Positions 21,845 to 48,652 of a DNA stretch of 64,000 nucleotides are shown piece after piece (position 1 is the stretch's first letter; the number at the start of each line of letters is the position of its first letter). The DNA comes from an uncultured Acidimicrobiia bacterium (lineage in GTDB: Bacteria > Actinomycetota > Acidimicrobiia > IMCC26256 > JAENVU01): positions 9,803-73,802 of the forward strand of contig CAWDUD010000004.1 in assembly GCA_963805415.1 (NCBI GenBank). Reading direction: 5' to 3'. The translations under genes were made by a program, and so were the position numbers. The notes under the pieces were generated by a model that was not told the origin of the DNA, did no database searches, and saw only the letters and a program-made list of their open reading frames with translations.

Positions 21845-21864
21845 GGCTGCAAGCTAGCGGGCGC

Positions 21865-23942: not shown

Positions 23943-23948
23943 CGAGCG

Positions 23949-24365: not shown

Positions 24366-24374
24366 GTTCCGTCC

Positions 24375-25007: not shown

Positions 25008-25010
25008 CGA

Positions 25011-26235
25011 TCAGTCCTCCGCCGTGCCGGGCTCGATCGTCCACGCGTAGACGCCGAAGAGCAGCACGATCACGCCCGGGATCGCGAGCCACGGGATCTT
25101 GAACACCGCGGCGTACCCGAGGATCGGCAGGCCCAGGGCGAGGATCAACGGGTAGAACGAGGGCGACGGCAGGTGGATGCCGTGACCGTCGGCGGCGGCG
25201 TGCGACGTCCCGTCGTCGGCGCCACCGGCAGGGAGGCGCACCAGACGGCCCTCCTCGTCCTCGGTGTACTTGCGGTGCCAGAAGTCGTCCGCGGCGTGGA
25301 CCTCGGGGATCTCCGCGAAGTTGTACTCCGGAACCGGTGAGGGGATGGACCACTCCAGCGTGCGACCGTCCCACGGGTCCGCGCTCGCCACCTCACCGTT
25401 CCTCGTCGTCTTGATCACGTTCACGAGGAACACGAGGACCGACAGGGCGATCGTGAAGCCGCCGATCGTCGCGACCAGGTTCAGGTTGTCCCAACCCATC
25501 CCGGCGGCGTAGCGGTAGGTCCGGCGGGGCTGGCCCTCGAGACCGAGGATGTGCATCGGGAAGAACGTGAGGTTGAAGCCGATGAGCATCAGCCAGAAGT
25601 TCACCTTGCCGATGCGGTCGTCGAGCATCCGCCCGAACATCTTCGGCCACCAGTAGTAGAAGCCGCCGAAGATCGCGAACACGAGCCCACCGAACAGCAC
25701 GTAGTGGAAGTGCGCGACGACGTAGTACGTGTCGGTCTGCTGGGTGTCCGCCGGCACGATCGAGTGCGTGACACCGGACAGCCCGCCGATGGTGAACATC
25801 GCGATGAACCCGAGCGCGAACAGCATCGGCGCGTTGAGGCGGAGCGATCCGCCCCACACCGTGCCGAGCCAGTTGAAGATCTTCACGCCGGTCGGGATCG
25901 CGATGAGCATCGTCGAGAGGCCGAATGCGGTCGTCGCGACGGGTCCGAGCCCGGTGGCGAACATGTGGTGCGCCCACACACCCCATCCCAGGAAGCCGAT
26001 CGCGATGCCGGAGAAGATCACGACCGAACGACCGAAGAGCGGCTTGCCGCGACATCACCGGGAGGATCTCGGAGACGATGCCCATGCCCGGCAGGATCAG
26101 GATGTAGACCTCCGGGTGGCCGAACAGCCAGAAGAGATGCTGGTACAGCAGCGGATCACCGCCCGCGGCCACGACGAAGAAGTTCGTCGAGAAGTTGCGG
26201 TCGAAGAAGACCATGATCAGCGCGGCGGTCATCAC
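25011..26235 (-). pseudogene. ctaD: ctaD, C-terminal two-thirds (separated from its N-terminal part; extra frame break near 26046)
   Basis: '(V)[55 protein letters not shown]' then, after a 1-nt shift, '[32 protein letters not shown]...[14 protein letters not shown]'. Confidence 0.9.
26213..26231. repeat. Left copy of the 19-bp direct repeat ATGATCAGCGCGGCGGTCA
   Basis: Identical string at 47940-47958 in the same orientation. It lies exactly where the two ctaD halves break. Confidence 0.95.
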
Positions 26236-26358
26236 GACGCGGAACGGAGGTACGCTCCATCATCCCGCATCACATTTGTGGAACAACCTACGACAAGCGA
26301 CACTATGAGGTGGGCGCGCGGGCACGACCACGAAATGTGCATTGACAAAGGGGTGGGA

Positions 26359-29300
26359 ATGCACGGGCAAGGTGAGATCCCGGAGGTCCAGAGCATCCCG
26401 GGGGGGCAGTCCGGACCGCTGAACCGGCTGATAGAGCGCCCCGAACTGCTGAACGAAATCGTGCGTGTACTGCGCGCTCGCCCGGGCATGGTGGCGGTGA
26501 CGGGGCCCGGCGGCGCGGGGAAATCCACCTTGGCCGCGCAGGCATGCAGGGATCACCGGGTGCGGAGGCACTATCGCGACGGCATCGTCTGGCTCGGGGC
26601 CAGGCCGGGGCAGGACCCAGTGGAGCTGCTGGCCACCGTGGCCGACCGCCTCGGGATGCCCCACGAGGCGAGCTGCTTCGCGACAGTCGAGCAGGGCCGC
26701 GAACTACTCAAGCCGATGCTGCTGGGCAAACGGCTGCTGATTGCGGTGGAGAACGTATCTGAGCGCCCGCTACTCGATATCTTCCGAGACCTGATACCCG
26801 CGGGTACGGTATTGTTCACCACCCGGCTGCCAGAACTGGCAGAGGCGGTCAAGGCCACCGATATTCACGTAGACAGCCTGCCCCAGGAGCAGTCGCTGGA
26901 ACTGCTTGGCCGCTGGACTGGCCAGGATCCGGCGACGCTTCCGCAGGAAGCCGAGATTCTGTGCGCTCGATCCGGCAATCTGCCACTATGTGTAGCGCTA
27001 GCGGGCGGGATGGTAGCCAGCGGCCTATCAGCCATGGTGACACTAGACTCGATTAGCGAATTTCCCGGCCAGCAAGATGCCGAATGGGACTCGGCATCTC
27101 GCGCGAGGGCATTGCGCTACGTGATCGAGGCCAGCATTGAAGCCCTGCCCAAGACCGCGCAGACCCGATATGAGCAGCTGGCCGTTTTCTCCGGACGCGG
27201 CCCGTTCACTCTCGAGGCCGCGCAAGCGCTGTGGCATGGCGATCTGGACGACAGCGCAACGCATCGTTTGCTGGCCGAGTTTGTCGACCGGGCCCTGCTC
27301 GCCGTACGGGGCGCCGACTGGTATGCGCTACACGACCTGCAATGCGAAGTGCTCGAGGACCGGCTCAGCGACGACGGGCTGGCCGCCGCGCACGCTCAGC
27401 TGCTGGACGGATATCGCATGCGCTATCCAGAGGGCTGGGCCGAGTCTGCCGCCGACCCTTACCTAGCCTGCAACCTGGTCGGTCATTTGCATGACGCGCG
27501 TCTCGGCGGCGAACTGCGCGCTGTGCTGACCGACACGGAATGGATCCAGGGCCGCCTGACACTAGCGCCTGCCTATGAGCTTATTCACGATTACCGGTAT
27601 GCCGCCGACCCGCTCACCCGCCAGATCATGCGGGCCCTGCGCTTGTCGGCCACGTCACTGGTGGCCAGTCCGGCGCTGATCCGGTCTCATCTCGCCAGCA
27701 GCTTGCTGAATCATCCAGATCCCGGCGTCGCAGCCTGGGCTGCTGGCCTCACCGACCGTACCGACGTCCCGCCGAGCTACTGGCTGGCGCCGGTGATCCG
27801 CGCGGTCACCACGCCGGTCAACCCGCTCAAGCAGATCTTCACCGGTCACACGGGCCAGGTTCGCACGGTCGCGGTCAGCGGGGATGGTACCCGCGTGGTA
27901 AGCGGAAGCGACGACAGTACGGTCCGCGTCTGGACCCGGCCACCGGCCGCCAGGACACTACGCTCACCGGCCACACCGATTGGGTGCGGGCGACCGCGGT
28001 CAGCGGGGACGGCGCCCGCGTGGTAAGCGGAAGCGACGACAGTACGGTCCGCGTCTGGGACGCGGCCGCCGGCCGGGAGGAGGCGGTCCTCACCGGCCAT
28101 GACGGCGAGGTCTCCTCGGTGGCGCTCACCCCGGACGGCGCCCTGGCGGTCAGCGGCGGGAGCGACCGGACCGTTCGGGTCTGGGACCTGGCCACCAGCG
28201 CCGAGCGGGCCGTCCTGGCCGGCCACGCTGGCCCGGTGTGGTCGGTAGCCATCACCCCGGACGGCGCCCTGGCGGTCAGCGGAAGCGGTGACGGCACCGT
28301 GCGGGTCTGGGACCTGGCCGCCGGGCGGGAGGAGGCCGTTCTCACCGGCCATGCCGGCGAGGTCTTCTCGGTGGCGCTCACCCCGGACGGCACCCTGGCG
28401 GTCAGCGGAAGCGGTGACGGCACCGTGCGGGTCTGGGACGTGCCCGCCGGTGAGCAGAAGGCTATCCTCACCGGTCACACCGGCTGGGTTCGAGCGGTTA
28501 TGGTGGCCGCGGACGGGACCCTTGCCATCAGCGGCGGTGAGGACGCGTCGGTGCGGGTCTGGGACCTGGCCGCCGGGCGGGAGGAGGCGGTCCTCACCGG
28601 CCATGCCGGCGAGGTCTTCTCGGTGGCCATCACCCCGGACGGCACCCGCGCCTTCAGCGGAAGCGGCGACGAGACACTGCGGGAGTGGGACCCGACGGCC
28701 AACCGCGGGGAGGCCGCCGACACGGGCTGGATTTTCGCGGCAGCGGTCAGCCGAGATGGCGCCCGAGCGGTCACTGGCGGACGGGACGGAATGGTCCGCG
28801 TCTGGGACCTGGTCACCGGCCGGGAGGAAGCCGTCCTCACCGGCCACTCTCGCCCCATCTTCTCGGTGGCGCTCACCCCGGACGGCGCCCTGGCGGTCAG
28901 CGGCGGGAGCGACCGGACCGTTCGGGTCTGGGACCTGGCCACCGGCGCCGAGCGGGCCGTCCTGGCCGGCCACCCCGGCCCGGTGTGGTCGGTAGCCATC
29001 ACCCCGGACGGCGCCCTGGCGGTCAGCGGAAGCGGTGACGGCACCGTGCGAGTCTGGGACCTGGCCGCCGGCCGGGAGGAGGCGGTCCTCACCGGCCATG
29101 ACGGCGAGGTCTTCTCGATGGCCATCACCCCGGACGGCGCCCTGGCGGTCAGCGGCGGGAGCGACCGGACCGTTCGGGTCTGGGACCTGGCCACCGGCGC
29201 CGAGCGGGCCGTCCTGGCCGGCCACCCCGGCCCGGTGTGGTCAGTAGCCATCACCCCGGACAAGACCCTCGCCATCAGCGGCGGTAAGGACGCGTCGGTG

Positions 29301-29693
29301 CGGGTCTGGGACCTGGCCGCCGGCCGGGAGGAGGCCGTCCTCACTGGCCATGACAGCGAGGTCTTCTCGGTGGCCATCACCCCGGACGGTACCCGCGCCT
29401 TCAGCGGCGGCGCCGACGCCACGGTGCGGGTCTGGGACCTGGCCACTGGGACAGAGATTGCTCGCTGGAGTGCGGATCATCCCGTGATCGGGTGCACCGC
29501 GCTACCAGGCCGCCCTCTCAGGATTGGTATCGGACAGGGACGAGGCTGCCCTTGTGTGCTTGAGCTGCACGCCGCGCCGCGTCGGCCTGCGAACGAGAGC
29601 CTGACAGGCGACGGTCATCGAAGGCTGGGACCGAGAGCGGCGCCATCCCGTTCCGGCATGTCGCGCCCCAGCCTCTATCGCAGGTTGCGTTAA
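26359..29693 (+). CDS. STAND NTPase: NB-ARC domain + 14 WD40 repeats (frame break near 27933)
   Basis: Walker A 'GPGGAGKST', Walker B-like 'LLIAVENV', 'VLFTTR' and a GLPL-like 'GNLPLCVALAGG'. These are followed by a helical linker and 14 x 42-aa WD repeats ('GH..V.SVA.TPDG..AVSGS.D.TVRVWD'). ORFs 25729-28026 and 27984-29693 join if one G is added to 'TGG' at about 27933. The start could be ATG 26305 or 26359. Confidence 0.85.
27844..29480 (+). repeat. Tandem 126-nt coding repeats (WD40 blades)
   Basis: Thirteen-plus consecutive 126-nt units. Units two apart can be identical over more than 100 nt (for example about 28873-28990 versus 29125-29242). Confidence 0.9.
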
Positions 29694-29801
29694 GTTAAGA
29701 CCCCAGGTCAAGAGCATCTGCGCAGCTGAAGCCGACGCTGGCTGCTCCTCGCAGTGGTACGCCCGTCCCAGTGGGCCTAAGCGAGCTCAGCTTAACTTAA
29801 C
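29689..29801. repeat. 11-bp perfect inverted repeat GTTAAGTTAAG / CTTAACTTAAC enclosing 91 nt
   Basis: 29689-29699 and 29791-29801. The left arm contains the STAND stop codon. It is AT-rich in a GC-rich context and is followed by a palindromic GTTATAAC (29828-29835) and a TATAAC repeat. Confidence 0.8.
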
Positions 29802-30114: not shown

Positions 30115-31782
30115 ATGAAAATAGCGATGATGACTGAGGGCACCTATCCGTTCAGTTTCGGCGGGGTAAGCGTGTGGTGCGATCAGCTCATCCGCGGAAT
30201 GACTGGATATGAGTTCCAGCTAGTCGCCATCGCGGCGACGGAAGCCGAGCAAGTGGTGTGGTCACTGCCGGACAACGTCACCGCCGTGCACAAGGTGCTG
30301 CTCTGGGGTCGTTCGCCCGCCGGACCAGCGGGTCGGCGGCACGCCCTTCCAACCCGCATGCTGCGCGGGTTTATCGATGTAGTGCTCGACCCCTCGGCCC
30401 AGGCCCGTTTCGCCGATACGCTGCGCGAGTTGTTCGAGTTCTCACTTCACGGGAATCTTAGCGCTGGACTGGCCAGCGAGAAGGCCGTGCAGTTCCTAAG
30501 CGAGGCGTGGCGGGACCGGTGGTCAGGGGCAGGACAGTCCGTACCTACCCTGCATGATGCCGTCACCGCACTGCAACTGCTAGAGCACTGCCTTCGCCCG
30601 TTGTCATATTCGCCCATCCAGGCTGATATCGGGCATGCGGTGACAAATGGGCTCGGGGTGCTGCCTGCGCTGGCGGCGAAATGGCAATATGGCACGCCCT
30701 TGCTGCTTACTGAGCATGGCATCTATTTGCGCGAGCAGTACCTGGGGAATCGCAAGAGCCCTTACCGATGGCCGGTGAAGGCGTTCTACCTCGGATTTAT
30801 GCGCCACCTGTGTGCGCTCGGCTATAGCGAGGCTGCTATGATCACACCGGGGAATGTCTACAACCGGCGCTGGGAAGAGCGGCTCGGCGCGGAGCCGACG
30901 CACATTCGTACCGTATACAACGGGGTGGAGCCGGACAACTTCCCTGCTCTTGAGGGCGAGCCCGAGGTTCCGACGATCTCATGGGTCGGACGTGTTGACC
31001 CGATCAAGGATCTTGAGACGTTGCTGCGAGCGTTCAGCCTGGTGCACCGGGAAATGCCCGAGGCAAGGCTCCGCATGTTCGGGGCGCCCCCCAAGGGCAG
31101 GGAGTCCTACCTGCAGCGCTGCCGGGCGCTAGCCACGGAGCTCGGCATCAGCGATGTGGCGACGTTCGAGGGCCGGGTCGAGAACATCCGCGACGCTTAC
31201 GAGGCCGGCAGCGTCGTCGCGCTCTCCAGCGTTTCCGAGGGCTTCCCGTACAGCGTGATCGAGGCAATGACCTGCGGCCGTACGTGCGTGGCGACGGACG
31301 TAGGAGGGGTCACCGAAGCCGTCGGAGATACCGGCCTGGTGGTTCCTCCGCGCAGCCCCGCCCCCATGGCGCAAGCCTTCCTTACCCTGCTGCGGGACGA
31401 TGAACTGCGGCACCGGCTCGGCGCCGCTGCCCGCACCCGGGCGTTGGAGCGCTTCACGGTTGACGGGGCTATCAGCAGCTTCGATGAGATCTATAGCTTT
31501 ATCAGCGCCGGCCGCCGGGTGCCGGTCGCGGCGCCTGAGCCGGATGCCCATGACCGGCCTGAAGCCGATGACGAATCAGACCTGCCGCCGTGGGAGGCCC
31601 CAGATGACCGTGAGCACCACGTCGACGCAGCACGATCCGCCGTCTGGCCAGCTGGCACACGGAGTCCGGCGGCAAACGGCGGCAAACATCGCCGAGGATT
31701 CCAAGCCGCGCGGTCTGGAGCAGCTTTGCGAGCAGTTCGTGGAGGTGTGCGAATCCGCAGTCGATCCGCTGGAAATAACTAG
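30115..31782 (+). CDS. PelF-like GT4 glycosyltransferase (DUF3492-type N-domain + glycosyltransferase family 1 domain)
   Basis: 'MKIAMMTEGTYPFSFGGVSVWCDQLIRGM' matches the PelF N-terminal signature ('EGTWPYVRGGVSSW..Q'). 'LLLTEHGIYLRE', and C-terminal GT-B motifs 'ISWVGRVDPIKD' and 'ALSSVSEGFPYSVIEAMTCGRTCVATDVGG'. The last roughly 60 codons overlap the next gene and may not be real. Confidence 0.85.
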   Translation: MKIAMMTEGTYPFSFGGVSVWCDQLIRGMTGYEFQLVAIAATEAEQVVWSLPDNVTAVHKVLLWGRSPAGPAGRRHALPTRMLRGFIDVVLDPSAQARFADTLRELFEFSLHGNLSAGLASEKAVQFLSEAWRDRWSGAGQSVPTLHDAVTALQLLEHCLRPLSYSPIQADIGHAVTNGLGVLPALAAKWQYGTPLLLTEHGIYLREQYLGNRKSPYRWPVKAFYLGFMRHLCALGYSEAAMITPGNVYNRRWEERLGAEPTHIRTVYNGVEPDNFPALEGEPEVPTISWVGRVDPIKDLETLLRAFSLVHREMPEARLRMFGAPPKGRESYLQRCRALATELGISDVATFEGRVENIRDAYEAGSVVALSSVSEGFPYSVIEAMTCGRTCVATDVGGVTEAVGDTGLVVPPRSPAPMAQAFLTLLRDDELRHRLGAAARTRALERFTVDGAISSFDEIYSFISAGRRVPVAAPEPDAHDRPEADDESDLPPWEAPDDREHHVDAARSAVWPAGTRSPAANGGKHRRGFQAARSGAALRAVRGGVRIRSRSAGNN

Positions 31783-33156
31783 TGCACTGGAGTTCGACGG
31801 TCTAAGTGACCGGCTAGCGCGGAAGCGGTACGGCGCTTCTGATGTGTTTGCCCTGGCTGAGGAGATGTTCCGGCGTGTGCCGCGGCGGCCGGCCGAGCCT
31901 GGCCACAGCCCGACCCATGGCAGACAAGCAAGGTACGGGCCGCCCTGCACGGCCTGCTGTACGGGTTGCCGACTGTCTGCTTCGCGGCTTCGAACGGGCT
32001 GCTGGCCGGGCACGAGGTGCTCATTGTCCTCATCGTGGCCCTGCTCGCGTCGTGGGCGCTGGGCCAGGGCCTTGCCTATCTCGGGTACGCCCGGCTAAGC
32101 CGGGCTGATCGAGCTCAGGCGGCCCACCTGCTGCTCGTTGGCGAGGCCGCCGGGTTCGCGGGCATTGTCTGCGCCTTGGCCGTCACGTCCCTGGCGGTAC
32201 ACGCGCACGGTATGACGCTCATTTTCGGCCTGGGTCTCGGGGCATACATGCTCGGCGCCACGGTGCTGATGGTCTTGGGCGGCGAGCGACTGCTGCTGGT
32301 CGCGCTCGCGCCCGGGGTGCTGGGCTCCGCGACGTTCCTGATCCTCGGCCGGCCATCGCAGCTCCAGTACGCGGCCTGGGGGGGCCGTGGCCGCCACACC
32401 TGTGCTGGCTTTGACCATAGCCGCGGTCCGCTCCGGCTACGTCGCTGGCCTTTTCGGCAAGGCCAGGGAAGCGCGCAAGGGGCAGTCAGCTGGCAAGCTG
32501 CTGGTGGCCGCGAGTTGCGTGATGCGCTGCCGAGCGCTGGATTCGGACTGGTAGCCGCCGCGCTTTTGGTATTCCCGATCGCGGTCGCGTTGCTCGGGTC
32601 CCACGCTCCCACCGCCGGGGCAATGCTGGCCTCGCTGCCCCTGGCACTCAGCATGGGCGCCGCCGAGTGGCTGCTCATCTGGTTCCGACGGCGAACACGC
32701 CGGCTGCTGGGTAGCACACTGGACCTGCGGATCTTCAGATTCCGGGCCTGGATAGTGCTGTTTGCCGCCCTGCTGCAGTACCTGGCGGCCGCTATCCTGC
32801 TCACCGCTATTCTCGCCACGATCGCTAGCCTGGCTAACCTCGTTCATCTGCATGCGATAGCACTCACGCAGATCGCGGCGTACATGGCACTCGGCGGCGG
32901 GATGTTCCTGGCTTTGCTGCTACAGGCCTTCGGCAGCCGCACGTTCCCCCTGATCGCCTGTGCAGCAGCGCTGGCTGTCGAGGTCATGCTGCGTGGTCTA
33001 GGCGCATTGGGTCAGCTGCTGACGTGCGGGGCGTTGATGGTGGTGCTGGCTGTGTACGCGGCGGTGGTGCGGGGCGTGTGGTGCGGCATGGCTGAGATGG
33101 GTGCGAGCCCTCGCGGCCGGGCTGAGGAGCTAGGTAGGGGAGGGCATCGTGGGTGA
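31604..33156 (+). CDS. Polytopic membrane protein, unknown family (candidate exporter/co-synthase; about 3 frame breaks)
   Basis: ATG 31604 has a GGGAGG sequence 6 nt upstream. The cytoplasmic N-domain reads 'DPLEITSALEFDGLSDRLARKRYGASDVFALAEEMFRRVPRRPAEP', followed by at least 10 hydrophobic helices. Frames change near 31920, at the G7 run 32379-32385 and near 32505. Confidence 0.55.
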
Positions 33157-33771
33157 GCAGTCGTCATGGAATCCGTGGGACCAGCAGATTCCGAATCAGT
33201 GGCAGAGAACGTCTCTGTACCAGGGTCAGCCGTATCAAGGGCAGCCCGATCCGGGACAGTCCCTACACGGGCCTTCCGTCGGCGAGCCACCCCATCGTGA
33301 TCCCGGTTACCGTCCCCCGCCACAGCCGCACAGAACGCCACCTCGCGGGAACGGCCACTGGGTGCGGAACATCCTCTCCGGCGTCGGTGCCCTGGTCGTC
33401 GCCATCGTGCTGATCTATATCTTCTCGAGCCGCGGCGGCAGCGGCGCCTCATCCGACTCGCATGCGTCAGCCGCGTCCGCGCACCACTGGATCACGTACA
33501 CAGTCACCGGTACCGCGGCGCAGACGTGACCTACGGCCCGGCTGGGACCGAGATGAGCGCCATGGTTCCGATGAAGGTGACGGTTCCGCTCCAGAGTGCC
33601 TTGTTTTACACGATCACCGCCCAGCTCAACGGCCACGGCAAGGCGGCATGCGCGATCTCCGTCGACGGGAAGGTCATCGACCGGGCCAAGGCGACGGGTG
33701 GCCACCACATCGCACAGTGCGGGATCCAGCGGAACCAAGGCACGGGGACCTGGGAGAGCGTCCGGGGGTAG
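33149..33771 (+). CDS. MmpS-like membrane-anchored protein (frame break near 33524)
   Basis: GTG 33149 overlaps the upstream stop. There is a Pro/Gln-rich N-terminus, TM 'ILSGVGALVVAIVLIYIF', then 'ITYTVTGTAAQ|VTYGPAGTEMSAMVPMKVTVPL...ACAISVDGKVIDRAKATGGHHIAQC', typical of the MmpS-type beta-sandwich. Confidence 0.55.
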
Positions 33772-33789
33772 GCAGTAATCCCAGCAGGT

Positions 33790-34983
33790 CGGCCCCCGGG
33801 TGACTGATCAGGGTGCGGATCGCCTGGTAGCAGCACAGCATCGCGTAGATCTCCTGCCGGATCAACGGCGGGGATTTCGCTCGCAGGACGACGGCAGTAC
33901 CGCCACGGAGAGAGGTCTCCAGCTCATCGAAACAGGTTTTCAGCTGCCAGTGCCGGGCGTAGGCGCCCACAGCTTGATCCGCTGACAACACCGACGGATC
34001 GGTGATGTCGGTGACCAGGGGGAAGGCTTCAGGGAGCACGCTGCCGTTCCGGCTGGCGGCCGAGTACTCGATGACCCGGACCGGAATGCCGGGGATGGCA
34101 GGAGGATAGCCACCCTCGCGCCGCATCCGGCGGAGAACGCCGCCGGGGTTGGCAACGCGGAACAGGGTACCGACGGTCAGGAAGCAGCTCCAGCACCTGG
34201 TAGGTCCACATCATCCTCGCCCGTCATAGTACATGCGCCTTGGCTGCCAGCACATCCTCCAGCAAGCCGTGCGACAAGAAGTCGCGGCTGGCGAGCAGCA
34301 GGTCGTCGTGGGCATAGTAGTTGTTCAGCAGCTTGCTGGTCAGCGGCAGCTCTCCGGCATCCAGCGGCGCCAGCTCGGCCCCGGAGCACCGCCCAGGTCC
34401 CTGCACCGGCCCAAGCCGACGACGCGGACCGCGGAAAGGGTCCCGGCCCGGCGTGGTCGCCCGGATAGCCGAACTCGAGTCCCGTTCTCCCTGGTGGCCT
34501 GGACCTCCAGGCATATCCCGTTGACCGCGATCAGACGCATCCGGCTCCACCCGGGCGATGTCTGGCTGCTCTGCGGCCGACGGCCTGGCTGCTGCTGCTA
34601 GCTAGCCGCTGGATCGCCGGCCTGGAAAGCCGTTGCCGGGCCAGAGAATCGCGGCCGGGGAGGGCTGCGTGCCGAGCGCGGGCCTGCCGCGGCAACGATC
34701 GCGCCCGCCGCAACACCGAGTACCTTGCACCAGCTTGTCCCAGACCTGAGTGTAGCCGGACCCCGGGACAGATCACCACTACCAGAAGAAAGGACACTCG
34801 ACGACACGCGCGGGAAGGGTACCGCTTGCGCTGTCCCGGACCTCGGCCTCGTCAACGACCTTGTCGACCAGTTCCGGCGGGAAGACCTTTGCCGAAGTTG
34901 CGATCCCGATCCGGTCCGGCAGGTGGTTCCCCGAATCTCCCCGCTGTCTCTTCGGCGACGCAATCGCTATCTGTTCTGGTCAT
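33790..34983 (-). mobile_element. IS4-family transposase remnant (multiple frame breaks, 3' truncated)
   Basis: N-terminal IS4-type segment 'LPDRIGIATSAKVFPPELVDKVVDEAEVRD...LPARVV'. DDE region 'DDLLLASRDFLSHGLL' and 'VRVIEYSA...YARHWQLKTCFDELETSLRG...LRAKSPPLIRQEIYAMLCCYQAIRTLI'. The pieces lie in all three minus frames. No terminal inverted repeats were identified. Confidence 0.7.
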
Positions 34984-35561: not shown

Positions 35562-35646
35562 GGCCCTCTCTTTTCCTATTTCCTCGGCATCGTTTTTCAG
35601 GGCTAGCCCTCCATCGGAGGGCTAGCCCCCTGGACCGTGGCTCAGC

Positions 35647-38600: not shown

Positions 38601-38860
38601 GGTCAGCGTGAAGCTCTGGGTCGCGTCGGGCCGGCCCCGTTCGGTGGCGTGATCGTCAGCGGGTAACTGCCGCCGGTGCCCGACGCTGCGGTGCCCGCGA
38701 TGGTCGCGGTGCCGTCGCCGTTGTCGGTGAAGGTGATGCCGGAGGGCAGCGCCCCGGTCTCGGTGAGCATCGGCGCCGGGCACCGGTGGTGGTCACCGTG
38801 AAGCTGAAGGGTGCCCACGATCGAGGTGGCCGAGGATGCGCTGGTGATTGCCGGGCCCAC
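35647..38860 (-). repeat. About 12 tandem coding repeats of about 270 nt (putative Ig-like / He_PIG-type domains)
   Basis: The 'ITSA' motif recurs about every 270-280 nt (near 38850, 38590, 38310, 38040, 37790, 37510, 37240, 36965, 36430, 36170, 35890). The copies are divergent, not identical. Confidence 0.8.
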
Positions 38861-41460
38861 GTTTTCGGTGAGGGTTTGGGTGGCGCCGGTGCCGAGGCTG
38901 ACCCAGTCGGACAGGGTGCCGCCGTAGGGCTGGCCGAAGGCCGTGCCGTTGACGGTGGTCCGGCCGGGGCGGTGACCGGCACGTTGACCGGCGCGCCGTT
39001 GTTGGTGATGGTGACGGTGCCGTTGGTCTCGGTTGCGGTGTACTGGCCGGCGATCTGGGCGGTGGCCCAGGCGGCTTGGCGTGCCAGCGCCTGCGCGGAG
39101 GTGACGTCGGTCAGCTGGTCCAGCGGGGCGCTGCTGGCGTACCAGGCGTTGTACTGGGACAGCATGGTGTTGATCAGGGACAAGATGGTGTACCGTAGTC
39201 CTGGCCGCTCCAGACGGTCGGTGGCCGGGCCGATCAGGTTGGACTGGTGCGCGTAGCCCACCCGCGGGTCGTTGGCCAGCACGTGGCCCAGCATGATGTG
39301 CGACTCGGACGCCAGCACGTCCGCCTCGGCCGCCGGGGCCGCGCGGCAGGTGGTGACCGTCGTGCCGCGCAGTGGCCGACATCGCCGGTGCCGCCGGGGA
39401 ACGAGACGCCCTGCTGCACGTATAGCGTGTTGTACTCGTTGAGCTGGTCCGGCCAGTTGGCGGCGTTGTAGTAGATGTTGCTGGGGTACCGCGGCGCGTC
39501 AGCGCCGTGCCCAGGGTGTACACTGCGGCTGCCGGGACGCGTCCGCGGCGAAGGTGGTGACGCCCGTCCCGGTCAGGGAGGCGCTGGCATGTTCGGGTTC
39601 TCCAGCCCGGAGTGCTCCCCGGTGACCAGCGCCGCCGGGGTGTAACTGGTCAGCCCGTTGGCGGCGGCGAAGGCCTGGTTCAGGCCGATCTCCTGTTCGA
39701 GGGAGTCAGCCGCGGTGCTGGTGGCCGGCAGCCGGCCGCCGCTGCGCAGTCGATGCCCGGGTTGGTGGCCGTGGTGAAGGTCGAGCTGGAGTCCGGCGGG
39801 CCCCCGGGGCGGTCCGGTGTCGGTGAAGCCGTACGTGGTGGACGAGGTGGCGGAGGTGTTTTCGGGCACCTGGTCGACCAGGCCGTAGCTGCCGCCGTCC
39901 TGGCGGTAGATGTTGTACCCCCAGAACCCGGTCCCGCCGGTGTGCGAGGCTCCTCCTGGGCCAGCGTCGGCCCGCCGCCGTTGGTCGCCTCGGGCCAGCT
40001 CAGCGCGACCGCCCGCCGGCCCACGGTGACCGGCTCGCGGCACCGAGGGCTCGGACTCGCCGTACGCGGTCGCCGCGGTGATCTCATAGCTGTAGGTCCC
40101 GGCCGCCAGGCTCCCGCCCACGCCGCCCGTCACCCACGACAGCGCCTGCTGATCGGCCTTGGTGCAGCCCAGGAACAGCGTGCGACCAGGTGTGGTTGAT
40201 CCAGTTGAACTCGGACTGGGCGCCCAGCAGCGCGCTGACCAGCCCCGCGTCATCAGGGGCGGACGAGTCCGCCACAAAGCCCGGGTCGGTGTAGCCGTTG
40301 TAAGTGCCGGAGCAGTTCGCGCTTGACGCGGTTGGCGCGGTGCACGCCCCCACCCCGTTGAAGGCCAGGTTCAGCTTGATCCCGGTCTGCTGCTCCCAGG
40401 CCGTCACGTACGCCACGTCCGCCGCGCTCATCTGCGCATCCGGCGGAGCGCCGTTCGTCCCGGGGCCACCCCCTGGCCGCGGGCAGGTGAAATCAGGCGG
40501 GTCCGTCGCCGCCGGGGTGCACTGGTACGTCGAGCTCCACTGGTTATCAGCCAGGAACGTGTCATCGATGTCCTGGCCGAAATAGTTCCGGTACAAGCCC
40601 AGGTGCGTCCCCTGCGTCACCCAGTTGATCAGCCCCGGCGCCAGCAGCAGCCACTGCGTATCGCTGGCGTTGTAGTCGAAGGTCAGCGCCAGCTCCGCCA
40701 CCCCCGCCTGCGGGTCACCACCCGGATGCTGGTACACCCCCGCCAGGACGTGTCCGGCCGTGTCGGTCAGGAACGGCGTGTACGGCGCCCCGGCATCCAC
40801 CGTGGCCCCGTAGCCTAGCTGCCGGTATCAAACGGGACCGGGCCCTTCAGCTCCGGGAACGCCGCCAGCCCGGCCGCGGTCAGCGTCCCCGTCGACCCGT
40901 CCAGCACCCCCGAGGTCGCGACGGCCGTCACGCCCAGCGCCGGCGAGGGGTAAAGTACCCGTCAACCTGCCGCACCCCGAAGCTGGACTCATACGCATCC
41001 AGCGCATCCAGCTGCCCCGCCGCGAAAAAGCCGGCGAATCGGCGATCACCACCGCGTTGAAATTACCGGTAGTGCCGCTGGACAGCGCGGGCAGCGTCAC
41101 CGTCTCACTGCCAACCGCCCCCGACGCCGTGACCAGCGTATACGGCACCCCCTCGCTGTCCAGCGCGGCCTGCCACGCCAACGTGGTCACATCAGATGAC
41201 CCCCCGCCGACCAGCAGCACCTTCAAGTCCAGCGTCGGCGCCGCCGGCGCCGACCCCGCCGCCCCGCGCCGCCAGCCGCCGCCCCCGCCCCCGAAACCAC
41301 GCCGCCGACGCCGACCGCGCCCCCCCACCAGCCGACACCCCAGCCGCCGCCAGCACCCCGGCCAGGCACAACCCCACCCACCCCACACCACCACGCCCGC
41401 ACACACCAGGAAACCCCACCGAACACCCCACCCCTCCAGAAGACCTACGTGGTGTAACAC
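35647..41460 (-). pseudogene. Giant secreted Agd3/CE18-like polysaccharide deacetylase with FN3-like insert and about 12 Ig-like repeats (15 or more frame breaks; pseudogene or poor consensus)
   Basis: Minus-strand pieces in order. N-domain: 'TLDLKVLLVGGGSSDVTTLAWQAALDSEGVPYTLV'. Catalytic region: 'GLYRNYFGQDIDDTFLADNQW' (Asp-Asp near 40561-40566) and, about 125 residues later, 'FNWINHTWSH' (HxxxH near 40180-40194). FN3-like: 'LAAGTYSYEITAATAYGESEPS'. Further: 'HIMLGHVLANDPRVGYAHQSNL'. Repeats follow of the type 'PAITSA..AT...G.AFSFTVTTTG.P.PTLTETGTLP.GLTFTDNGDGTATLSGTP...G.Y.LTITA.N'. The true stop is TGA at 35647-35649 ('TFTLTVS*'). Confidence 0.55.
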
Positions 41461-42293
41461 GACCCTACCGGACCGGAACGCGCAACGCTTAGTAATACAG
41501 CAGTTTCGGAAGGCCTAAATAGAACATGCTGGTCACGGGACCAGCAAGCAGAGTGCGGCTATGCCACTAGAAGATATGGACCAGCGTCTTCCGAGTCTGC
41601 CATCTCTATGATGCCTGACGGCATGCGCCGGATTACATCAGACGCAGAAATTCTCGCCATGGCCAAAAAGCGGCGTTTCTGTTATGGCTACGTGACCTTC
41701 ACTACGGCGCCGCATAGGGTAGCACGGGGCCTTCCGGCCGGACAGGGGGTTTCGACGAGATCCCTTCTTACTGGGCTCCGGCTACCCTCACATAACGTTT
41801 GTCCGTTTTGTTCGCCTGGTTATCCCGTTACACGCCAGATGATCGAATCGCCCGTTTAGAAGACTTAATTCTGTCGATCGGAGAACCACAAGCGGCTAGT
41901 ACATCCGGTCCGGCGTAAACCGACTTATCTGCTGGCGCGTCATTTACTGTGCTGAAGCACCGCGAAATAGGTCTGACTGCGATCCCAAAGTTGGACAACA
42001 GAGGCCGGGCCACTGCGATCCGGCGACAATCAAGGGGGGCCGATGCGCCATACCGCATGCCATAGCAACCGGGTTCGTACAGTACCGGCTGTCGCGCTGA
42101 GGCCCCTTGACCACGAAGTGCCCGCGGTGGCAACCGCCGACGGGATGACCGAAATAACCAGCCTGATGTTCGCGTGCACGACCTTCATTTCCCAGGCCCG
42201 CACAGGCCTGCGCGCACGCTTAGCGTGCGGGGAGTTGGTGGTGGTGCTGCGGGCGGGCTGGCGTGAGTGTTCTGTTCGGGAGGGGTAGTGAGC

Positions 42294-43291
42294 ATGGCGG
42301 AGCGGGTTGCGGTTACGGGCGCCGACGGGTTCATCGGCTCGCACCTCGTGGAGCGCCTCGTCGAGCGCGGCCACCGCGTCCGCGCGATGGCCCTGTACAA
42401 CTCCTTCGGATCCTGGGGCTGGCTCGACACCCTGCCCGCCGAGGTGATGGCGAACGTCGAGGTCGTGCTCGGTGACGTGCGCGACGCCGGCTGCGTGGAC
42501 CCGTTCGTCGAGGGCGCCGAGGTGGTCTACCACCTCGCCGCGCTGATCGCGATCCCTTACTCGTACACGGCGCCGCGCTCGTACGTCGAGACGAACGTCG
42601 TCGGGACGCTCAACGTGCTCGAGGCGGTGCGGCGGCACGGGACCGGCCGGATGGTCCACACCTCGACGAGCGAGACGTACGGGACGGCGCGGACGGTGCC
42701 GATCAGCGAGACGCACCCGTTGCAGGCGCAGTCGCCGTACGCCGCGAGCAAGCTCGCCGCGGACAAGCTCGCCGAGAGCTTCCACCTGAGCTTCGAGGTG
42801 CCGGTCGCGACGCTGCGTCCCTTCAACACCTTCGGGCCGCGGCAGTCCAACCGGGCGGTGATCCCGACCGTCGTCGGCGCAGATGGCCGCCGGGGGCGAA
42901 GGTCGTCGAGCTCGGGGCGCTCACCCCGACCCGGGACTTCCTGTTCGTCAAGGACACCGCCGACGCGTTCGTCGCGATGGGCACCGCCCCCGCGGACGCC
43001 GTCGTCGGCCGGGTCCTCAACGCGGGCACCGGTGAGGAGATCTCGATCGGCGGCCTCGTCGAGACGATCGCGGAGATCATGGGCCTGGCCGTCGAGGTCC
43101 GGCAGGACCCGAAGCGGATGCGCCCGGACGGCTCGGAGGTGCAGCGGCTGCTGGCCGACGCCTCCGCACTGCGTGCCGCCACCGGCTGGGCGCCACGGCA
43201 CGACCTGCGCAAGGGCCTCGCGGAGACCGCCGACTGGTTCCGCGACCCGGCCAACCTCGCTCGTTACCGCACATCCGCGTACGTCGTCTGA
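42294..43291 (+). CDS. NAD-dependent sugar-nucleotide epimerase/dehydratase (extended SDR; two frame breaks near 42872 and 42895)
   Basis: ATG 42294 after GGGAGGGG. 'VTGADGFIGSHLVERLVERGHRV', 'ALYNSFGSWGWLD', catalytic 'SPYAASK', 'LRPFNTFGPRQ', then in another frame 'LTPTRDFLFVKDTADAF'. Confidence 0.8.
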
Positions 43292-43310
43292 GCGCGAAGG
43301 AGTCACGACC

Positions 43311-44035
43311 GTGCATGCAGTGGTGCTCGCAGGCGGCAAAGGCGTCCGCCTCCGCCCGTACACGACCGGCCTCCCCAAGCCCCTGGTGCCCATCGGTGAG
43401 GAGCACTCCATCCTGGAGATCGTCCTCATGCAGCTCGCGGACCGCGGGTTCACCGACGTCACGCTCGCGATCGGCCACCTGGGCCAGCTCATCCGCGCGT
43501 TCGTCGGCGACGGCCGCCGATGGGGCATCCGGGTCGACTACCTCGAGGAGTCAGGCCCGCTCGGCACGATGGGCCCGGTCGTCCAGCTCGCGGACCGACT
43601 GCCCGAGCACTTCCTGGTGATGAACGGCGACATCCTCACCGACCTCGCCTACGACGAGCCCTGCTGCACCAGCACGTGGCGGCGACCTCGGCGCTGACGG
43701 TCGCGACGTACGAGCGGGAGGTCTTGGTCGACTTCGGTGTGCTCGACGTCGTCGAGGACGCACGTGGTCGGGTTCCGCGAGAAGCCGCGCTCCACCAGTG
43801 CGGGTCAGCATGGGCGTCTACGGCGTGATCACCGGCCGCGCTGGAGCGGTACCGGCCGGTACCGCCCTTCGGCTTCGACGACCTCGTGCTCGACCTGCTC
43901 GGCCGGGGCGAGCCGCCGACCAGCTACCCGTTCGCGGGCTTCTGGCTCGACATCGGCCGCCCCGAGGACTACGACCGCGCCAACGCCGAGTTCGGCCGAT
44001 CCTGCTGCCGCAGCGTTCCAAGGAGGCCGGTGTGA
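43311..44035 (+). CDS. Sugar-1-phosphate nucleotidyltransferase (about 3 frame breaks)
   Basis: GTG 43311 after GAAGGAG. 'VVLAGGKGVRLRPYTTGLPKPLVPIG', 'LVMNGDILTDL'. The C-terminal part 'YPFAGFWLDIGRPEDYDRANAEF' is in another frame. The stop overlaps the next start (GTGA). Confidence 0.75.
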
Positions 44036-44960
44036 ACCATCGTGTGGTGTTGTTCGGCGCGTCCGGGTTCATCGGCGGGCACGTGCGTGCCGCGCTGGGG
44101 GAGGCCGATCCCGGCGTTGAGACGGTGGCTCTGCCCCCGGGCCAGGCGCCAGCACGATCTGATCGATGGTGGACCACGACGGGCTGGTCCGCGTGCTGGG
44201 CTCGACCATGCGCCGACCGCGATGGTCGCGGGGGCCTTCGTCGGCCGCCTCGGCGGCACCGGCTCCGACCTCCTGGCGCGGCAACACCCTGGTCGCGACC
44301 AAGCTGCTGGAGAAGACCGGCGCCGTGGCAGCGGCCCCGGCGTGCGCCTGGTCCGGCTGGGCTCCGCCGGAGAGTACGGCGTAGTGCCGCAAGCGGCCAC
44401 AGTGTCACCGAGTACGCCACCGACGCTGCCCGTGGCCGCGTACGGCGTCAGCCACCTGGCCGGCACCCGGCTGTTCCAGCTCGCGGGGGAGAGCGGGCTG
44501 GCCGACGCGGTGTCGCTGCGGGTGTTCAACCCGATCGGGCCCGGCCTGTCGGCTGAGGAACATGCTGGGCCGCGCCACCGACCGGATCCGTGCGGCGCTG
44601 GCTTTCCGGGGCTGGAGCGAGATCACCATGGGGCCGCTGTCGGCGTACCGGGATTTCGTCGACGTCCGGGATCTGGCGGCCGCAGTCCCGGGCTGTGCTG
44701 CGGCCGCCGGGGCTGTTGCGCCACCGGGTGTTCAACATCGGCAGCGGCCGGGCGGTGCCGGTCCGGGCGATGGCCAAGGAGCTCTGCGCCATCAGCGGCT
44801 GCGCCGTCTCGGTGAATGAGGATTCGCAAGACCTGGCGCGCCCGGTAGACATACCGTGGCAGCAGGCGGGCAATTGACCCGCGCCGTCGAAGACCTAGGC
44901 TGGAAGCCCCGCCGTGATCTTGCGACCTCGCTCATCGACCTGTGGGAGGCAAGCGCGTGA
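44032..44960 (+). CDS. Second NAD-dependent epimerase/dehydratase-family protein (5 or more frame breaks)
   Basis: GTG 44032 after AGGAGG. 'VVLFGASGFIGGHVRAAL', 'VRLGSAGEYG', 'AAYGVSHLAGTRL', 'RVFNPIGPG', 'YRDFVDVRDLAAAV', 'VFNIGSGRAVPVRAMA', 'DLGWKPRRDLATSLIDLW', spread over three frames. Confidence 0.6.
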
Positions 44961-45718
44961 ATCCGCACGCAGCTGATGGCACCGACCTGATCATACCGCT
45001 GCTCATCGTGCCGGCCTATTTCCATCCGGCCGTCGACCCGGACGATTGGGCGTGGCTGGTTCGCCATGCGAAGCAGATCCGGATGATCGTGCTCAACCCG
45101 GCCAGCGGGCCGGGTCCGGAGCCCGACGAGGCCTACTTCCCGGTACTGGACCGGTTGCGTTCTGCCGGGGTGGTGGTGAGTGGCTACGTTGATACCAACT
45201 ATGGCCAGCACCCGGCATGCCGGCCAGCGACGGGGATCGGGAACTGCCTGGACTGGTATGACGTGGACGGGGTCTTCTTCGATCGTGTCGCGACGGGCGC
45301 CGATCAGCTTGGCCATTATGCGGACCTCGCCCGCCGTGCGCGGGACATGGGAGCGGACGTGGTGGCGTTCAATCACGGGGCGCACCCGATCGAGGCCTAT
45401 GCCGAGCACGCCGATCTACTCGGCACCTTCGAGGGTCCCTGGAACGCCTATCTCGAGATGGCCGTGCGACGCTGGGAGAGGTCGCGAGGAGCCGGGCAGT
45501 TCTTCCACCTCCTGCATTCGGTGCCGACCTCTTTCTTCAGCGACGCGATCTGGCTTGCGGCCCGGCGCAAGGCGGGCAGCGTTTACATCACGGATCGTAG
45601 CGGAGCCAACCCCTGGGACAGCAGCCGGCCGGCGAGTTCGACCCGCGGTCTCTGTGGTCGGCCATCCTCACTGGTCACGATGATCCCCGTCGGGTCTGAG
45701 CCCGCCCAGAGGATATGA
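44957..45718 (+). CDS. Spherulin-4 family protein (Sph3/GH135-like), no signal peptide
   Basis: GTG 44957 overlaps the upstream stop (GTGA). 'LLIVPAYFHPAVDPDDWAWL', 'IVLNPASGPG', 'GVVVSGYVDTNYG', 'WYDVDGVFFDRV'. The frame is intact. Confidence 0.7.
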   Translation: MNPHAADGTDLIIPLLIVPAYFHPAVDPDDWAWLVRHAKQIRMIVLNPASGPGPEPDEAYFPVLDRLRSAGVVVSGYVDTNYGQHPACRPATGIGNCLDWYDVDGVFFDRVATGADQLGHYADLARRARDMGADVVAFNHGAHPIEAYAEHADLLGTFEGPWNAYLEMAVRRWERSRGAGQFFHLLHSVPTSFFSDAIWLAARRKAGSVYITDRSGANPWDSSRPASSTRGLCGRPSSLVTMIPVGSEPAQRI

Positions 45719-46690
45719 CGGATAGTCTGCGACGCGATGCCGACTTGGCCGCGCCGGGCAAAGGCGGCAGAAAGTTTCACCGTCGGCCCCCGGCCCGCAG
45801 GCCGCGGGTCGTCTTGCTGACGACCGCCGTCGTGCTGATCGCGGCGGCTGGCGTGGCGGTCCGAACGGTCCTGGAAAATGCCCCGCCGTGCCAGAAGACG
45901 CTTGTACCTGCGTATTTCTATCCGGGAGCGGATTGGACCACGGCTATCGACAGCAACCCTGCGCCTGGCCTCATGATCCTTGATATCACCGAGTCCGGCG
46001 CTGGCAGTTCGCCGGACCGGACCTACCAGGCCACGGTCAAGCGGGCGCGGGCCGCGGGAATCACGATCATGGGCTACGCCAGCACCGGTTATGCGCGACG
46101 TTCCCTGGCGGCGGTCGAGGCAGATATCAGGCACTACAGGACCTGGTACGGGGTGACCGACATCTTTCTCGATCAGGCCTCTAGTAGCAGCGGCGACATG
46201 ACGTACTACCGGCGCCTGTCCGGCTACGCACACGGCCTGAATCCCGGGTCGGCCGTGATGCTCTCTCAATCCCGGTACGTTTCCTGACCAGCAATATATG
46301 TCGCTGGGCGACATTATAATGGTATTCGAGAATACTTATGCCAGCTACGTTAATCTCCAGATTCCTGGATGGATCCACAAATATCCTGCCGCCAGGTTCG
46401 CTCATGTAATTTACGCGACCTCGGGAGCGCAGTTCGTCAATGCCATCAGCTTGAGCCGTAAGCGGCAAGCCGGTTATGTCTATGTGACCGACGGTACTGG
46501 GTTGCAGCGCTACAATCGGCTGCCTTCCTATTGGTCACGCGAAGACGCGATATTTGCGAAATGCGCCGACGCTGACATATTCGGTAGTCCGGCGGAGCGG
46601 GCTCAGATAGCGCTATCGGCAGGGACTGCGCTGGCCGGCCAGGGCCGTCGTGAACAATGTCCCATCTATGCCATGGGAAACATCGAATGA
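45715..46690 (+). CDS. Spherulin-4 family protein (Sph3/GH135-like), membrane-anchored (frame break near 46262)
   Basis: ATG 45715 overlaps the upstream stop (ATGA). Signal anchor 'VVLLTTAVVLIAAAGVAV'. 'LVPAYFYPGADWTTA', 'ITIMGYASTGYARR', 'WYGVTDIFLDQA'. The second half 'NPGTFPDQQYMSLGDIIMVFENTYASY...GYVYVTDG' is in the ORF 46298-46690 frame. Confidence 0.7.
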
Positions 46691-47720
46691 GCAGAACTTG
46701 GTGAGCGCCGTGGCGGTGTCACTGCCCCAGTCATCGGTATACTCGGCGTCCAGCACCAGTTTCCCGGCTTTCACGTATGGTGCCGTCACGCCTCCGCAGG
46801 TGTGGAAGAAGTTGCATTCCTCGTCCAGCAGGAAGTCCGTGGTCGGCTCCAGCGCCGCAGAGAACTTAGCGTCGTTATCGCCGTTCTTCTGCCCCCAAGC
46901 GAGCCCGAGACTGTGCGCGTAAGCACCGAGCAGCTTGTTGTACTTTATGTTATCGCTCTCGGTGATCCTAAAACCGGTCGCATTGGTATAAGAGTCGTCA
47001 ATATCCGGCTCGACTGCATCGAAGCCCTTGGCGGAGCACTGCTGCCTTATCATCGACTTGATGATGCGGATCGTCGAGGCTGCGTTAATGTTGAGATAGC
47101 GCTCGGAGTATCCGGGCATCGCGGCGCCTAGATCTCCGGCGGCTTTCAATTGCGCGAAGTAGGTTACCGGAATGCCCTCCTGCGAGGCCGAGAAATAGTC
47201 GCCGACCGCGCCGATCTCGATGTAGCAGATCACCTTGTCGTGCAGGCTGTGCAGCGCCCTGACCGCCGAGGCAGGGTTATCAATGCCATCGATATCGTAG
47301 ACGGTCGGGTTCTGCGCTTGCCGACTGGCGGCATTCATCGCCTTCTCGCCCATGTCCGCCGCGCCGTGTACGTTCAGCGCATGATCCAGTTCCCACTGAA
47401 ACTCGGGCCCATTATTTGGGCCGGTAGCCCTGGGGTGCCACCACATGCAGGGCCTTGGATGCCGCCACGACAGGTGCATGAGCTACCGACTTGCCACTGG
47501 TCACAGCAGCGGCCGACGCGCTGGTCACAGCAGTCGCCGACGCGGAAGATCCCGACACGGGAGCTGCTGGCACGGTCCCGGGACTCGGACGTGTATGAGT
47601 GATACTCGCAGCCGGCGATTCGTGACTGGAACCGCCGCAGGCGGCGACCAGCACCAAGGTAAGTCCGGCGACTATAGCCGCTGCCTGTTTCGTAACTTTT
47701 GAGTCCGACTTCCCGCCCAT
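46613..47720 (-). CDS. GH114-like endo-alpha-1,4-polygalactosaminidase lipoprotein (frame break near 47450)
   Basis: Lipobox 'LVLVAACGG' (ORF 47412-47720). Then 'FQWELDH...VYDIDGIDN...KVICYIEIGA...GFDAVEPDIDDSY.NATGF...AHSLGLAWGQKNG...DFLLDEECNFFHTC...KLVLDAEY' (ORF 46613-47479). Confidence 0.75.
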
Positions 47721-47939
47721 GGAGGGTAGCTTAGAGCCAGGTGCTTCGCCTCGGCTCCGGATTCTTTCAAACTATTGCCAGACCGACTCGGACATCGTGG
47801 GCACTTCACCGGGACCGGCACGGACTGGAGTTGCCATCGGCCGATCCGGTGACCGCGCCGACCGGAATCAGTCAGCTCGACGGGACCGGCGAGGCGCTCC
47901 ACCGCGTACGCGCCGTCTCGGGCCAGCTTCGCCCGCACG

Positions 47940-47958
47940 ATGATCAGCGCGGCGGTCA
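47940..47958. repeat. Right copy of the 19-bp direct repeat ATGATCAGCGCGGCGGTCA
   Basis: Identical to 26213-26231. Confidence 0.95.
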
Positions 47959-48595: not shown

Positions 48596-48652
48596 CCCGC
48601 GCGGGGCGCGATGGGGGCGGGCACGGCCGTCATCGGTGGGCTCCCTCGGTCA

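Follow-up and report, generated by a model that had tools for sequence, protein, structure and literature searches.

Large segments of DNA that interrupt a bacterial gene may be compared with several described systems. In bacterial non-homologous end joining (NHEJ), 5′ overhangs are filled in and ends are trimmed, and heterologous DNA can be taken up where the chromosome is broken (PMC6379672). The IS4-family relatives IS1549 and IS1634 generate long and variable target duplications of 8-514 bp, by a mechanism that is unknown (PMC2266710). Actinomycete integrative and conjugative elements (AICEs), other tyrosine-integrase islands and the tandem amplifiable units of DNA in actinomycetes are further points of comparison, and an actinobacterial galactosaminogalactan (GAG)/Pel-like gene set of the kind discussed below has been described by Bamford et al. 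(PMC7229062). Here, we consider a 21.7-kb segment that splits ctaD, the gene for cytochrome oxidase subunit I, in an uncultured Acidimicrobiia bacterium; the DNA analysed, referred to as the window, is a stretch of 64,000 nt from contig CAWDUD010000004.1 (assembly GCA_963805415.1, forward-strand positions 9,803 to 73,802). The locus is documented in its empty and occupied states, and the inserted unit in end-joined form (circle or tandem), with precise break points, blunt joints and neither homology, terminal inverted repeats (TIRs) nor an integrase.

The split ctaD gene and its empty counterpart

The CtaD frame runs on the minus strand from 48595 to 47940, beyond which the sequence is no longer that of CtaD, and CtaD is encountered again from 26231 to 25011. 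Exactly two copies of the 19-mer ATGATCAGCGCGGCGGTCA exist in the window, on the same strand at 26213-26231 and 47940-47958, with none expected on the basis of 100 shuffles. A counterpart was reached by exact look-up of the window CtaE protein, namely contig_23771 of ENA ERZ25039495 (L001), a metagenome chromosome of 1.8 Mb. This aligns to window positions 14371-26231 and 47937-56728 at 99.0-99.2 % identity, the two alignments overlapping by the repeat, and runs uninterrupted across the site (...GAAGACC-ATGATCAGCGCCGCGGTCA-CGGCCGG...), the 21.7-kb insert not being present. Its gene order is hrcA-dnaJ-...-phoH-ybeY-era-ctaC-ctaD(618 aa)-ctaE-ctaF-ctaG-...-uppS-recO-glyS, such that an intact COX1 of 618 aa lies between COX2 and COX3/COX4_pro/Caa3_CtaG, and the CtaE proteins of the two genomes are identical. 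The host of the window is an Acidimicrobiia metagenome-assembled genome, the source contig measuring 120,014 nt; among named relatives of its GlyRS, the best are 84-87 % identical and bear the label Acidimicrobiia bacterium. Position 12 of the 19-mer is G in both window copies and C in L001; a window-specific base common to both copies is what duplication of the resident sequence would produce.

Relative to L001, the interrupted gene carries a second lesion, an extra G at 26047, which may reflect a genuine mutation or an error left over from long-read sequencing. Excising 26213-47939 together with this base yields a CtaD of 618 aa, 615 of which are identical to those of the intact L001 protein; because of the extra G, removal of the insert alone fails to restore the frame. 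Comparison of ctaD with its L001 counterpart reveals eight synonymous and three non-synonymous codon differences, similar to the neighbouring genes, and indels between the two genomes are either intergenic or compensated in frame. The placement of these indels, along with the neighbour-like codon differences, indicates that the flanks are good sequence and that ctaD has not long been decaying. In carriers, the insertion thus amounts to a knockout of subunit I of a caa3-type oxidase. Separately, era of L001 (5802-6769) is split into ORFs of 257 and 80 aa by a 1-nt difference (L001 6489, window 50248), from which it follows that these assemblies hold occasional single-base indels.

The insert is also a discrete block that is foreign to its surroundings in composition. 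GC content is 0.678 for the insert versus 0.708 for the flanks, GC content at third codon positions (GC3) is 0.70-0.80 for insert ORFs versus 0.92-0.96 for flank genes, and the tetranucleotide correlation to the flanks is 0.83-0.93 for chunks of the insert versus 0.99 for chunks of the flanks themselves. A preliminary description of this DNA, made from its letters alone, had put forward much of the above. The two repeat positions, their common orientation and the breaking and resumption of the CtaD frame stand as it gave them, as does the interruption of an otherwise canonical ctaC-D-E-F-G operon, with ctaC, ctaE, ctaF and Caa3_CtaG flanking the split gene. Its claim that deleting the insert recreates subunit I holds only in part, as the 618 aa are regained once the extra G at 26047 is also removed. 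The empty site for which it had proposed a search was found, with an intact CtaD, in L001, and this 99 %-identical genome without the insert bears out the suggestion of a polymorphic insertion, as does the absence of signs of long decay in ctaD, compared with L001, for a recent one. The deviating composition that it had guessed by eye is evident in GC, GC3 and tetranucleotide usage alike, and domain scans likewise recovered the accessory gene content and the IS4 remnant that it had described.

Joined forms of the unit and structure of the joints

Other contigs bearing the inserted DNA, all from one ENA accession series, were reached via proteins 90-100 % identical to those of the insert; exact look-ups of the window PelF and the truncated CtaD returned no record. 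Three are of unit length and represent circular permutations of the insert, namely contig_142986 (21,781 nt), contig_64769 (21,746 nt) and contig_79916 (21,707 nt), of which contig_64769 closes on itself seamlessly. Two more, contig_5248 (L005/L014; 121,887 nt) and contig_16797 (L008/L013; 33,030 nt), hold the unit as a partial tandem of at least 1.23 units, with a period of 21,740 nt and copies that are mutually ~97 % identical. The upstream tandem copy has an IS1182-type transposase (DUF772/DDE_Tnp_1_6) between the membrane-protein gene and orf136, as well as an 817-nt deletion within IS4. That contig_5248 might represent the same ctaD locus was considered and rejected, as no 90 % cluster of flank proteins has a member on it. 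When GTDB genomes, JGI metagenomes and IMG/VR were scanned, no further copy was encountered, so that a single insertion is known. A megablast against PLSDB revealed no resembling plasmid, the sole match being to an SDR/nucleotidyltransferase pair at 72 % identity.

A more distant relative is provided by contig_19375 (L009/L012; 63,260 nt), where genes of the insert occur at 92-96 % identity within a larger polysaccharide locus. This adjoins UDG-ppx-DUF501-divIC-eno, genes with a GC3 of 0.87-0.94 (0.79 for UDG), and the cluster to which its Ppx belongs is labelled Streptosporangiaceae. Judging by these neighbours, the contig looks like a Streptosporangiaceae-like Actinomycetes chromosome that carries a relative of the unit. 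Its giant gene is unit-like for the first ~2.5 kb and then encodes DUF1349 domains, and a second CBM87 fragment, 85-87 % identical, lies on the opposite side of the gene set, beside UDG. This arrangement looks like an old Campbell-type integration, or a duplication, through the giant gene.

The end-joined forms define what was lost when the unit was opened. In L004, L005, L006, L008 and L009, the two ends of the insert are joined as ...CTTCGCCCGCACG-CTGAGCAGCAGCGCCAGATCCACCAG-TCACGACGCGGAACGG..., with the 26-mer CTGAGCAGCAGCGCCAGATCCACCAG always between them and absent from the window. The insert itself begins with TCACGACG... and terminates in ...CCGCACG. Insert and 26-mer together measure 21,734 nt, equivalent to one unit. 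In L009 the 26-mer bears one substitution and is plain intergenic sequence, and it is therefore native to the stretch between the divergent GH114 and NB-ARC genes. Due to this status in the chromosomal relative, the 26 nt were lost from the donor and are not a spacer; a relic of an earlier target duplication, or the spacer of an insertion sequence (IS) circle, were considered as origins for the 26-mer and rejected for the same reason. The unit-length contig_79916, from a second sample, is linearised exactly at TCACGACG, the left end of the insert, and terminates in the 26-mer plus T. It had at first been taken to be exactly the insert, and is more correctly described as a closed unit that the assembler cut open where the insert has its left end; the simplest reason for a break at this nucleotide is that reads branch there in the assembly graph of the second sample.

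When read against donor and target, both joints are blunt, with 0 nt of microhomology, and the event as a whole added 19 bp to the target whilst removing 26 nt from the donor. Similarity between the donor and target sites is no greater than that for random host windows (P=0.44), and in fixed register 9 of 18 positions match (P=0.056). The left 150 nt of the insert and the reverse complement of its right 150 nt align with a score of 15, for a shuffle mean of 16.3, such that no terminal inverted repeats are present, and neither the donor nor the target site harbours unusual hairpins or cruciforms. Pfam and NCBIfam scans of the unit proteins, using the intact L005 and L002 copies, returned no integrase, excisionase or serine recombinase and no Rep, Par or relaxase domains; the only recombination-type enzyme that they identified is an IS4-family DDE transposase.

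Taken together, the lack of microhomology, of site similarity, of inverted repeats and of hairpins excludes both conservative att recombination and homology-guided capture. Integrase-mediated, site-specific integration with the 19-mer as att core would account for direct repeats flanking an element of which a circular form exists, and, as with AICEs and tyrosine-integrase islands, the element is seen both integrated and as a circle, is bordered by direct repeats and carries accessory cargo of deviant composition. It differs from them in having no int, xis, rep or tra genes, in repeats that belong to the target only, and in a target that lies inside the protein-coding ctaD and not in a tRNA gene. 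As the joined ends hold a different 26-mer, the 19-mer is pure target sequence, and with attP-like and attB-like sites that are dissimilar and no recombinase of this type in the unit, we consider such integration extremely improbable. The preliminary description was thus correct in seeing neither an integrase nor terminal inverted repeats, as domain scans and end alignment agree. Its two suggestions for the origin of the repeat fared less well: for an att core, the joined ends carry CTGAGCAGCAGCGCCAGATCCACCAG where the empty site carries the 19-mer, with similarity at chance level, and for microhomology-mediated capture, both joints are devoid of the microhomology required and the sites are unlike each other.

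Possible routes of the unit into ctaD

The reading that we prefer, and hold with evenly balanced confidence, is that of a real, strain-polymorphic insertion of the unit by recombinase-independent joining into a staggered ctaD break. The source would be one copy of a ~21.74-kb accessory unit that exists elsewhere as a circle or tandem repeat. This circular or tandem-derived copy would have been opened in the GH114|NB-ARC intergenic spacer, with the loss of 26 nt there, and joined, without a site-specific recombinase, into a staggered break in the Acidimicrobiia ctaD, repair of the 19-nt stagger then giving rise to the 19-bp target duplication. Joining may have been the work of end-joining repair, in which Ku/LigD-type activities fill in and trim the ends, or of two template switches, and the donor was probably a free circle that had arisen from a tandem array through recombination of its copies. 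Recombination between such copies would release a circle, and the occurrence of the ~22-kb unit both as partial tandem and as unit-length, self-closing contigs is reminiscent of tandem amplifiable units of DNA in actinomycetes, from which it differs in that its copies diverge by ~3 % and no amplification-specific genes (e.g. zouA) were seen.

An experimental parallel is NHEJ capture in Sinorhizobium meliloti (PMC6379672), together with the end processing of mycobacterial Ku/LigD. Common to these and to the present locus are foreign DNA from a distant donor and blunt joints formed without homology or a recombinase, one partner being filled in and the other trimmed. The present case differs in the DNA that was captured, a circle or tandem unit of 21.7 kb, in a 19-bp gain that far exceeds restriction-type overhangs, and in a role for Ku/LigD that is presumed.

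Several considerations weigh against recombinase-independent joining. A GC-rich stagger of 19 bp is no obvious spontaneous break, and a precise target duplication with blunt joints is a hallmark of transposase-type strand transfer. Ku and LigD turned up neither in the 64-kb window nor in 20 kb of L001, no search of the host having been aimed at them. A free circle would be transient, since the unit has no recognisable replication genes, and the contig path through the unit is not beyond doubt, given an abnormal consensus in about half of the insert. With only one insertion event known, random and site-defined donor breaks are indistinguishable, and the recurrence of the break point as a contig end in another sample could mean that this allele is present there too or that the site is cut repeatedly.

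The clean target duplication and blunt joints, as well as the coincidence of that contig end with the left end of the insert, would also follow from an enzyme-catalysed, transposition-like insertion with a stagger of ~19 nt, in which two fixed cuts separated by 26 nt opened a circular or tandem donor. Comparable in this respect are the IS circles of copy-out/paste-in elements, which discard their junction spacer. The enzyme could be that of the host or the unit's own IS4-family enzyme, the gene for which is intact within the unit in L002 and L005 and has no TIRs of its own nearby. For this gene (L005 17374-18612, corresponding to window 33674-34959), no surrounding inverted repeats were detectable; it sits between two small genes, overlapping or abutting both, and its match to NF033592 is full-length. 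We nevertheless regard such an insertion as unlikely, for the ends of the insert have no inverted repeats and score below the shuffled mean, they are ordinary contiguous intergenic DNA in the chromosomal relative, and the L009/L012 chromosome holds the same gene set opened elsewhere, inside the giant gene. Moreover, a single event is known, and elements of the IS4 subgroup produce duplications of 10-13 bp (PMC2266710) compared to the 19 bp observed here.

A precedent for longer duplications is provided by IS1549 and IS1634, actinobacterial DDE elements that generate duplications far in excess of 10 bp (PMC2266710) and are related to the IS4 family, to which the transposase encoded by the unit belongs. 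These are, however, ISs of 1.5-2 kb with terminal inverted repeats, whilst the insert is a 21.7-kb block without them; the unit transposase matches the IS4 model NF033592, with no IS1634 match seen, and the insert 'ends' are internal sequence elsewhere. A stronger version, in which the unit is an undescribed mobile element without integrase or TIRs, strikes us as very doubtful. Such an element would cycle through a circle, opened within the GH114|NB-ARC spacer by a fixed pair of cuts with 26 nt between them, and would cut its target with a 19-bp (two-helical-turn) stagger. By analogy with IS1549 and IS1634, the enzyme of such an element might be the orphan IS4-family transposase.

Replicative template switching of the kind termed fork stalling and template switching or microhomology-mediated break-induced replication (FoSTeS/MMBIR-like) would require no staggered breaks. 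A fork in ctaD would have copied a circular unit once, stopped 26 nt short and returned 19 nt upstream of its exit, so that the 19-nt gain and 26-nt loss represent two imprecise switches, and a circular or tandem donor is available. Such switches normally rely on microhomology over a few nucleotides, of which both joints have none, and as the sole route we judge this improbable.

Returning to recombinase-independent joining, the insert is most likely an accessory island acquired by illegitimate integration, which is a known kind of gene transfer and not a new mobile element. The type of event is therefore ordinary; it is the documentation that is unusually good, since public data here cover a rare full set of states for recombinase-free gene transfer, comprising the target site with and without the insert, the donor with its ends joined (circle or tandem) and a more distant chromosomal relative of the cargo. 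As a natural example exact to the nucleotide, it would have a large accessory operon landing in a distant lineage at the cost of a respiratory oxidase, with the cargo's relative in a Streptosporangiaceae-like Actinomycetes chromosome and an Acidimicrobiia genome as the recipient.

Sequence quality and gene content of the insert

The similarity of the insert to other copies of the unit is strikingly uneven. Compared with L004 and L005, it is 99.2-100 % identical over 26.2-34.1 kb, 100 % over 41.5-42.29 kb and 96-99.4 % over 44.7-47.9 kb, versus 85-93 % over 34.2-41.2 kb and ~80 % (19.6 % substitutions) over 42.29-44.0 kb, with many frameshifts in both of the latter. The anomalous stretches, at 34170-41200 and 42290-44700, are 12-20 % diverged from all other copies, whilst neighbouring stretches are >99 % identical and the parts immediately adjacent differ from L004 by 0.2 %. 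Within IS4, window-specific changes are spread evenly over the codon positions (22/25/26), and their density is ~35 times that of the PelF region next to it; no hypermutation signature was found, as no single substitution class dominates. Contig_79916 (L016) is equally aberrant from the identical nucleotide onwards, at which the conserved SDR gene has its first codon; at 144 of the 223 sites where both contigs deviate, the change is common to the two, and roughly one third of the changes are shared with this contig. Pseudogene decay as the sole cause of the shattered central genes was rejected on the basis of the even codon spread, the sharp borders and this shared onset. Our best guess is that reads belonging to homologous genes, or to other variants of the unit, entered the consensus and corrupted it, with allelic replacement as an alternative. 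In view of this probable consensus problem, the mid-insert 'pseudogenes' are not yet to be taken as biology, and the same may apply to the frameshifts of one base in ctaD and in the NB-ARC gene. More generally, long-read metagenome contigs may contain locally corrupted consensus inside repeats that would otherwise be mistaken for pseudogene decay.

These observations bear on whether the insertion itself might be an assembly artefact, its junctions or the path through the unit having been mis-threaded in a long-read repeat graph, or the true structure consisting of several tandem units. The unit is indeed a repeat with multiple contexts in these metagenomes, the contig names are metaFlye-like, which suggests such a graph, and about half of the insert is diverged and frameshifted, with an onset in common with another contig that suggests contamination of the consensus. 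A chimera would not, however, yield both halves of the gene, a perfect 19-bp duplication and ends that are exact to the unit; sequence close to the junctions is 99.6-100 % identical to independent references on both sides, and the contig of a second sample breaks at the same nucleotide. An outright artefact accordingly seems very unlikely.

The genes carried by the insert, and those surrounding it, are listed in Table 1. On the basis of its domains, the cargo is assigned as a Pel/GAG-like exopolysaccharide locus, containing a PelF-type GT4 glycosyltransferase, a membrane protein, a GH114 hydrolase, Sph3-like proteins and an Agd3-type module (PF25116) in the giant protein. The Agd3/GH114/Sph3-type operons described previously (PMC7229062) have in common with it the PelF-type GT4, a multi-pass membrane protein, GH114, two Spherulin4 proteins, CBM87_Agd3 and sugar-nucleotide epimerases. 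It differs from these in that its CBM87 forms the N-terminus of a ~1900-aa He_PIG-repeat protein, the module being assigned without a deacetylase catalytic domain, and in the coupling of the operon to an NB-ARC/WD40 NTPase. The WD40 repeats of the latter (n=13; 27839-29520) form a tandem array at the DNA level with a period of 126 nt, shortened to 125 nt at the first spacing by the frameshifting 1-nt deletion in this gene.

Table 1. Window coordinates of the split ctaD gene, its neighbours and the genes of the insert
Feature	Position	Strand	Remarks
Left 19-bp target duplication copy (ctaD sequence)	26213-26231	+	
Right 19-bp target duplication copy (ctaD sequence)	47940-47958	+	
ctaD 5′ fragment	47940-48595	-	codons 1 to ~219; ORF continues into insert, stop at 47672
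ctaD 3′ fragment	25011-26231	-	extra G at 26047 shifts frame
ctaC	48653-49846	-	COX2_TM + COX2, C-terminal CxxCH
ctaE (24375-25007), ctaF/COX4_pro (23949-24365), Caa3_CtaG (23100-23942)	23100-25007	-	
Inserted segment, 21,708 bp	26232-47939	.	circularly permuted single unit minus 26 nt; collinear with L004/L005/L006/L007/L008 in permuted order
NB-ARC/APAF1-helical/WD40 STAND NTPase	26305-29693	+	99.6-99.8 % identical to intact 1129-aa L005 protein; 1-nt deletion (GGG->GG) at 27933
PelF-type GT4 glycosyltransferase (DUF3492 + Glycos_transf_1), intact	30115-31782	+	PF11997 + PF00534; close homologues named PelF
Polytopic membrane protein, PelG-like by position	31739-33095	+	~11 transmembrane segments; 452 aa in L005; frameshifted in window
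Small N-terminally anchored protein, 136 aa	33362-33771	+	one frameshift
IS4-family transposase gene remnant	33674-34959	-	intact in L002/L005, 412-419 aa, NF033592, PF13006
Small anchored protein	34967-35486	-	162 aa in L005; three frames in window
Giant secreted protein gene	35642-41460	-	shattered in window; L005 protein of 1932 aa with CBM87_Agd3 at its N-terminus and He_PIG/Ig-like repeats (~270 nt each)
orf81	42043-42285	+	100 % identical to L005
SDR dehydratase/epimerase	42294-43282	+	frameshifted; 25-50 % protein divergence (range for three adjoining genes)
Sugar-phosphate nucleotidyltransferase	43311-43996	+	frameshifted; 25-50 % protein divergence (same range)
Second epimerase	to 44957	+	frameshifted; 25-50 % protein divergence (same range)
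Two Spherulin4 (Sph3/GH135-like) genes	44957-46588	+	PF12138 x2
GH114 (Ega3/PelA-like) hydrolase	46613-47720	-	PF03537; lipoprotein signal in separate frame (47412-47720)

Elsewhere in the window, a single ORF of 1034 aa at 9189-12293 (-) encodes a complete DnaG primase (zinc ribbon, DNAG_N, Toprim and DnaB_bind) followed by a complete sigma-70 factor (regions 1.1-4). There is no stop between the two halves, and GC3 dips in the ~150-nt linker; this may be either a real dnaG-rpoD fusion or a stop lost, or an indel introduced, in assembly. Unconnected with the insertion are a tRNA-Asn at 8230-8305 (-) and two adjacent GGDEF diguanylate cyclase genes at 146-3558 (+), the first of which also possesses PAS domains.

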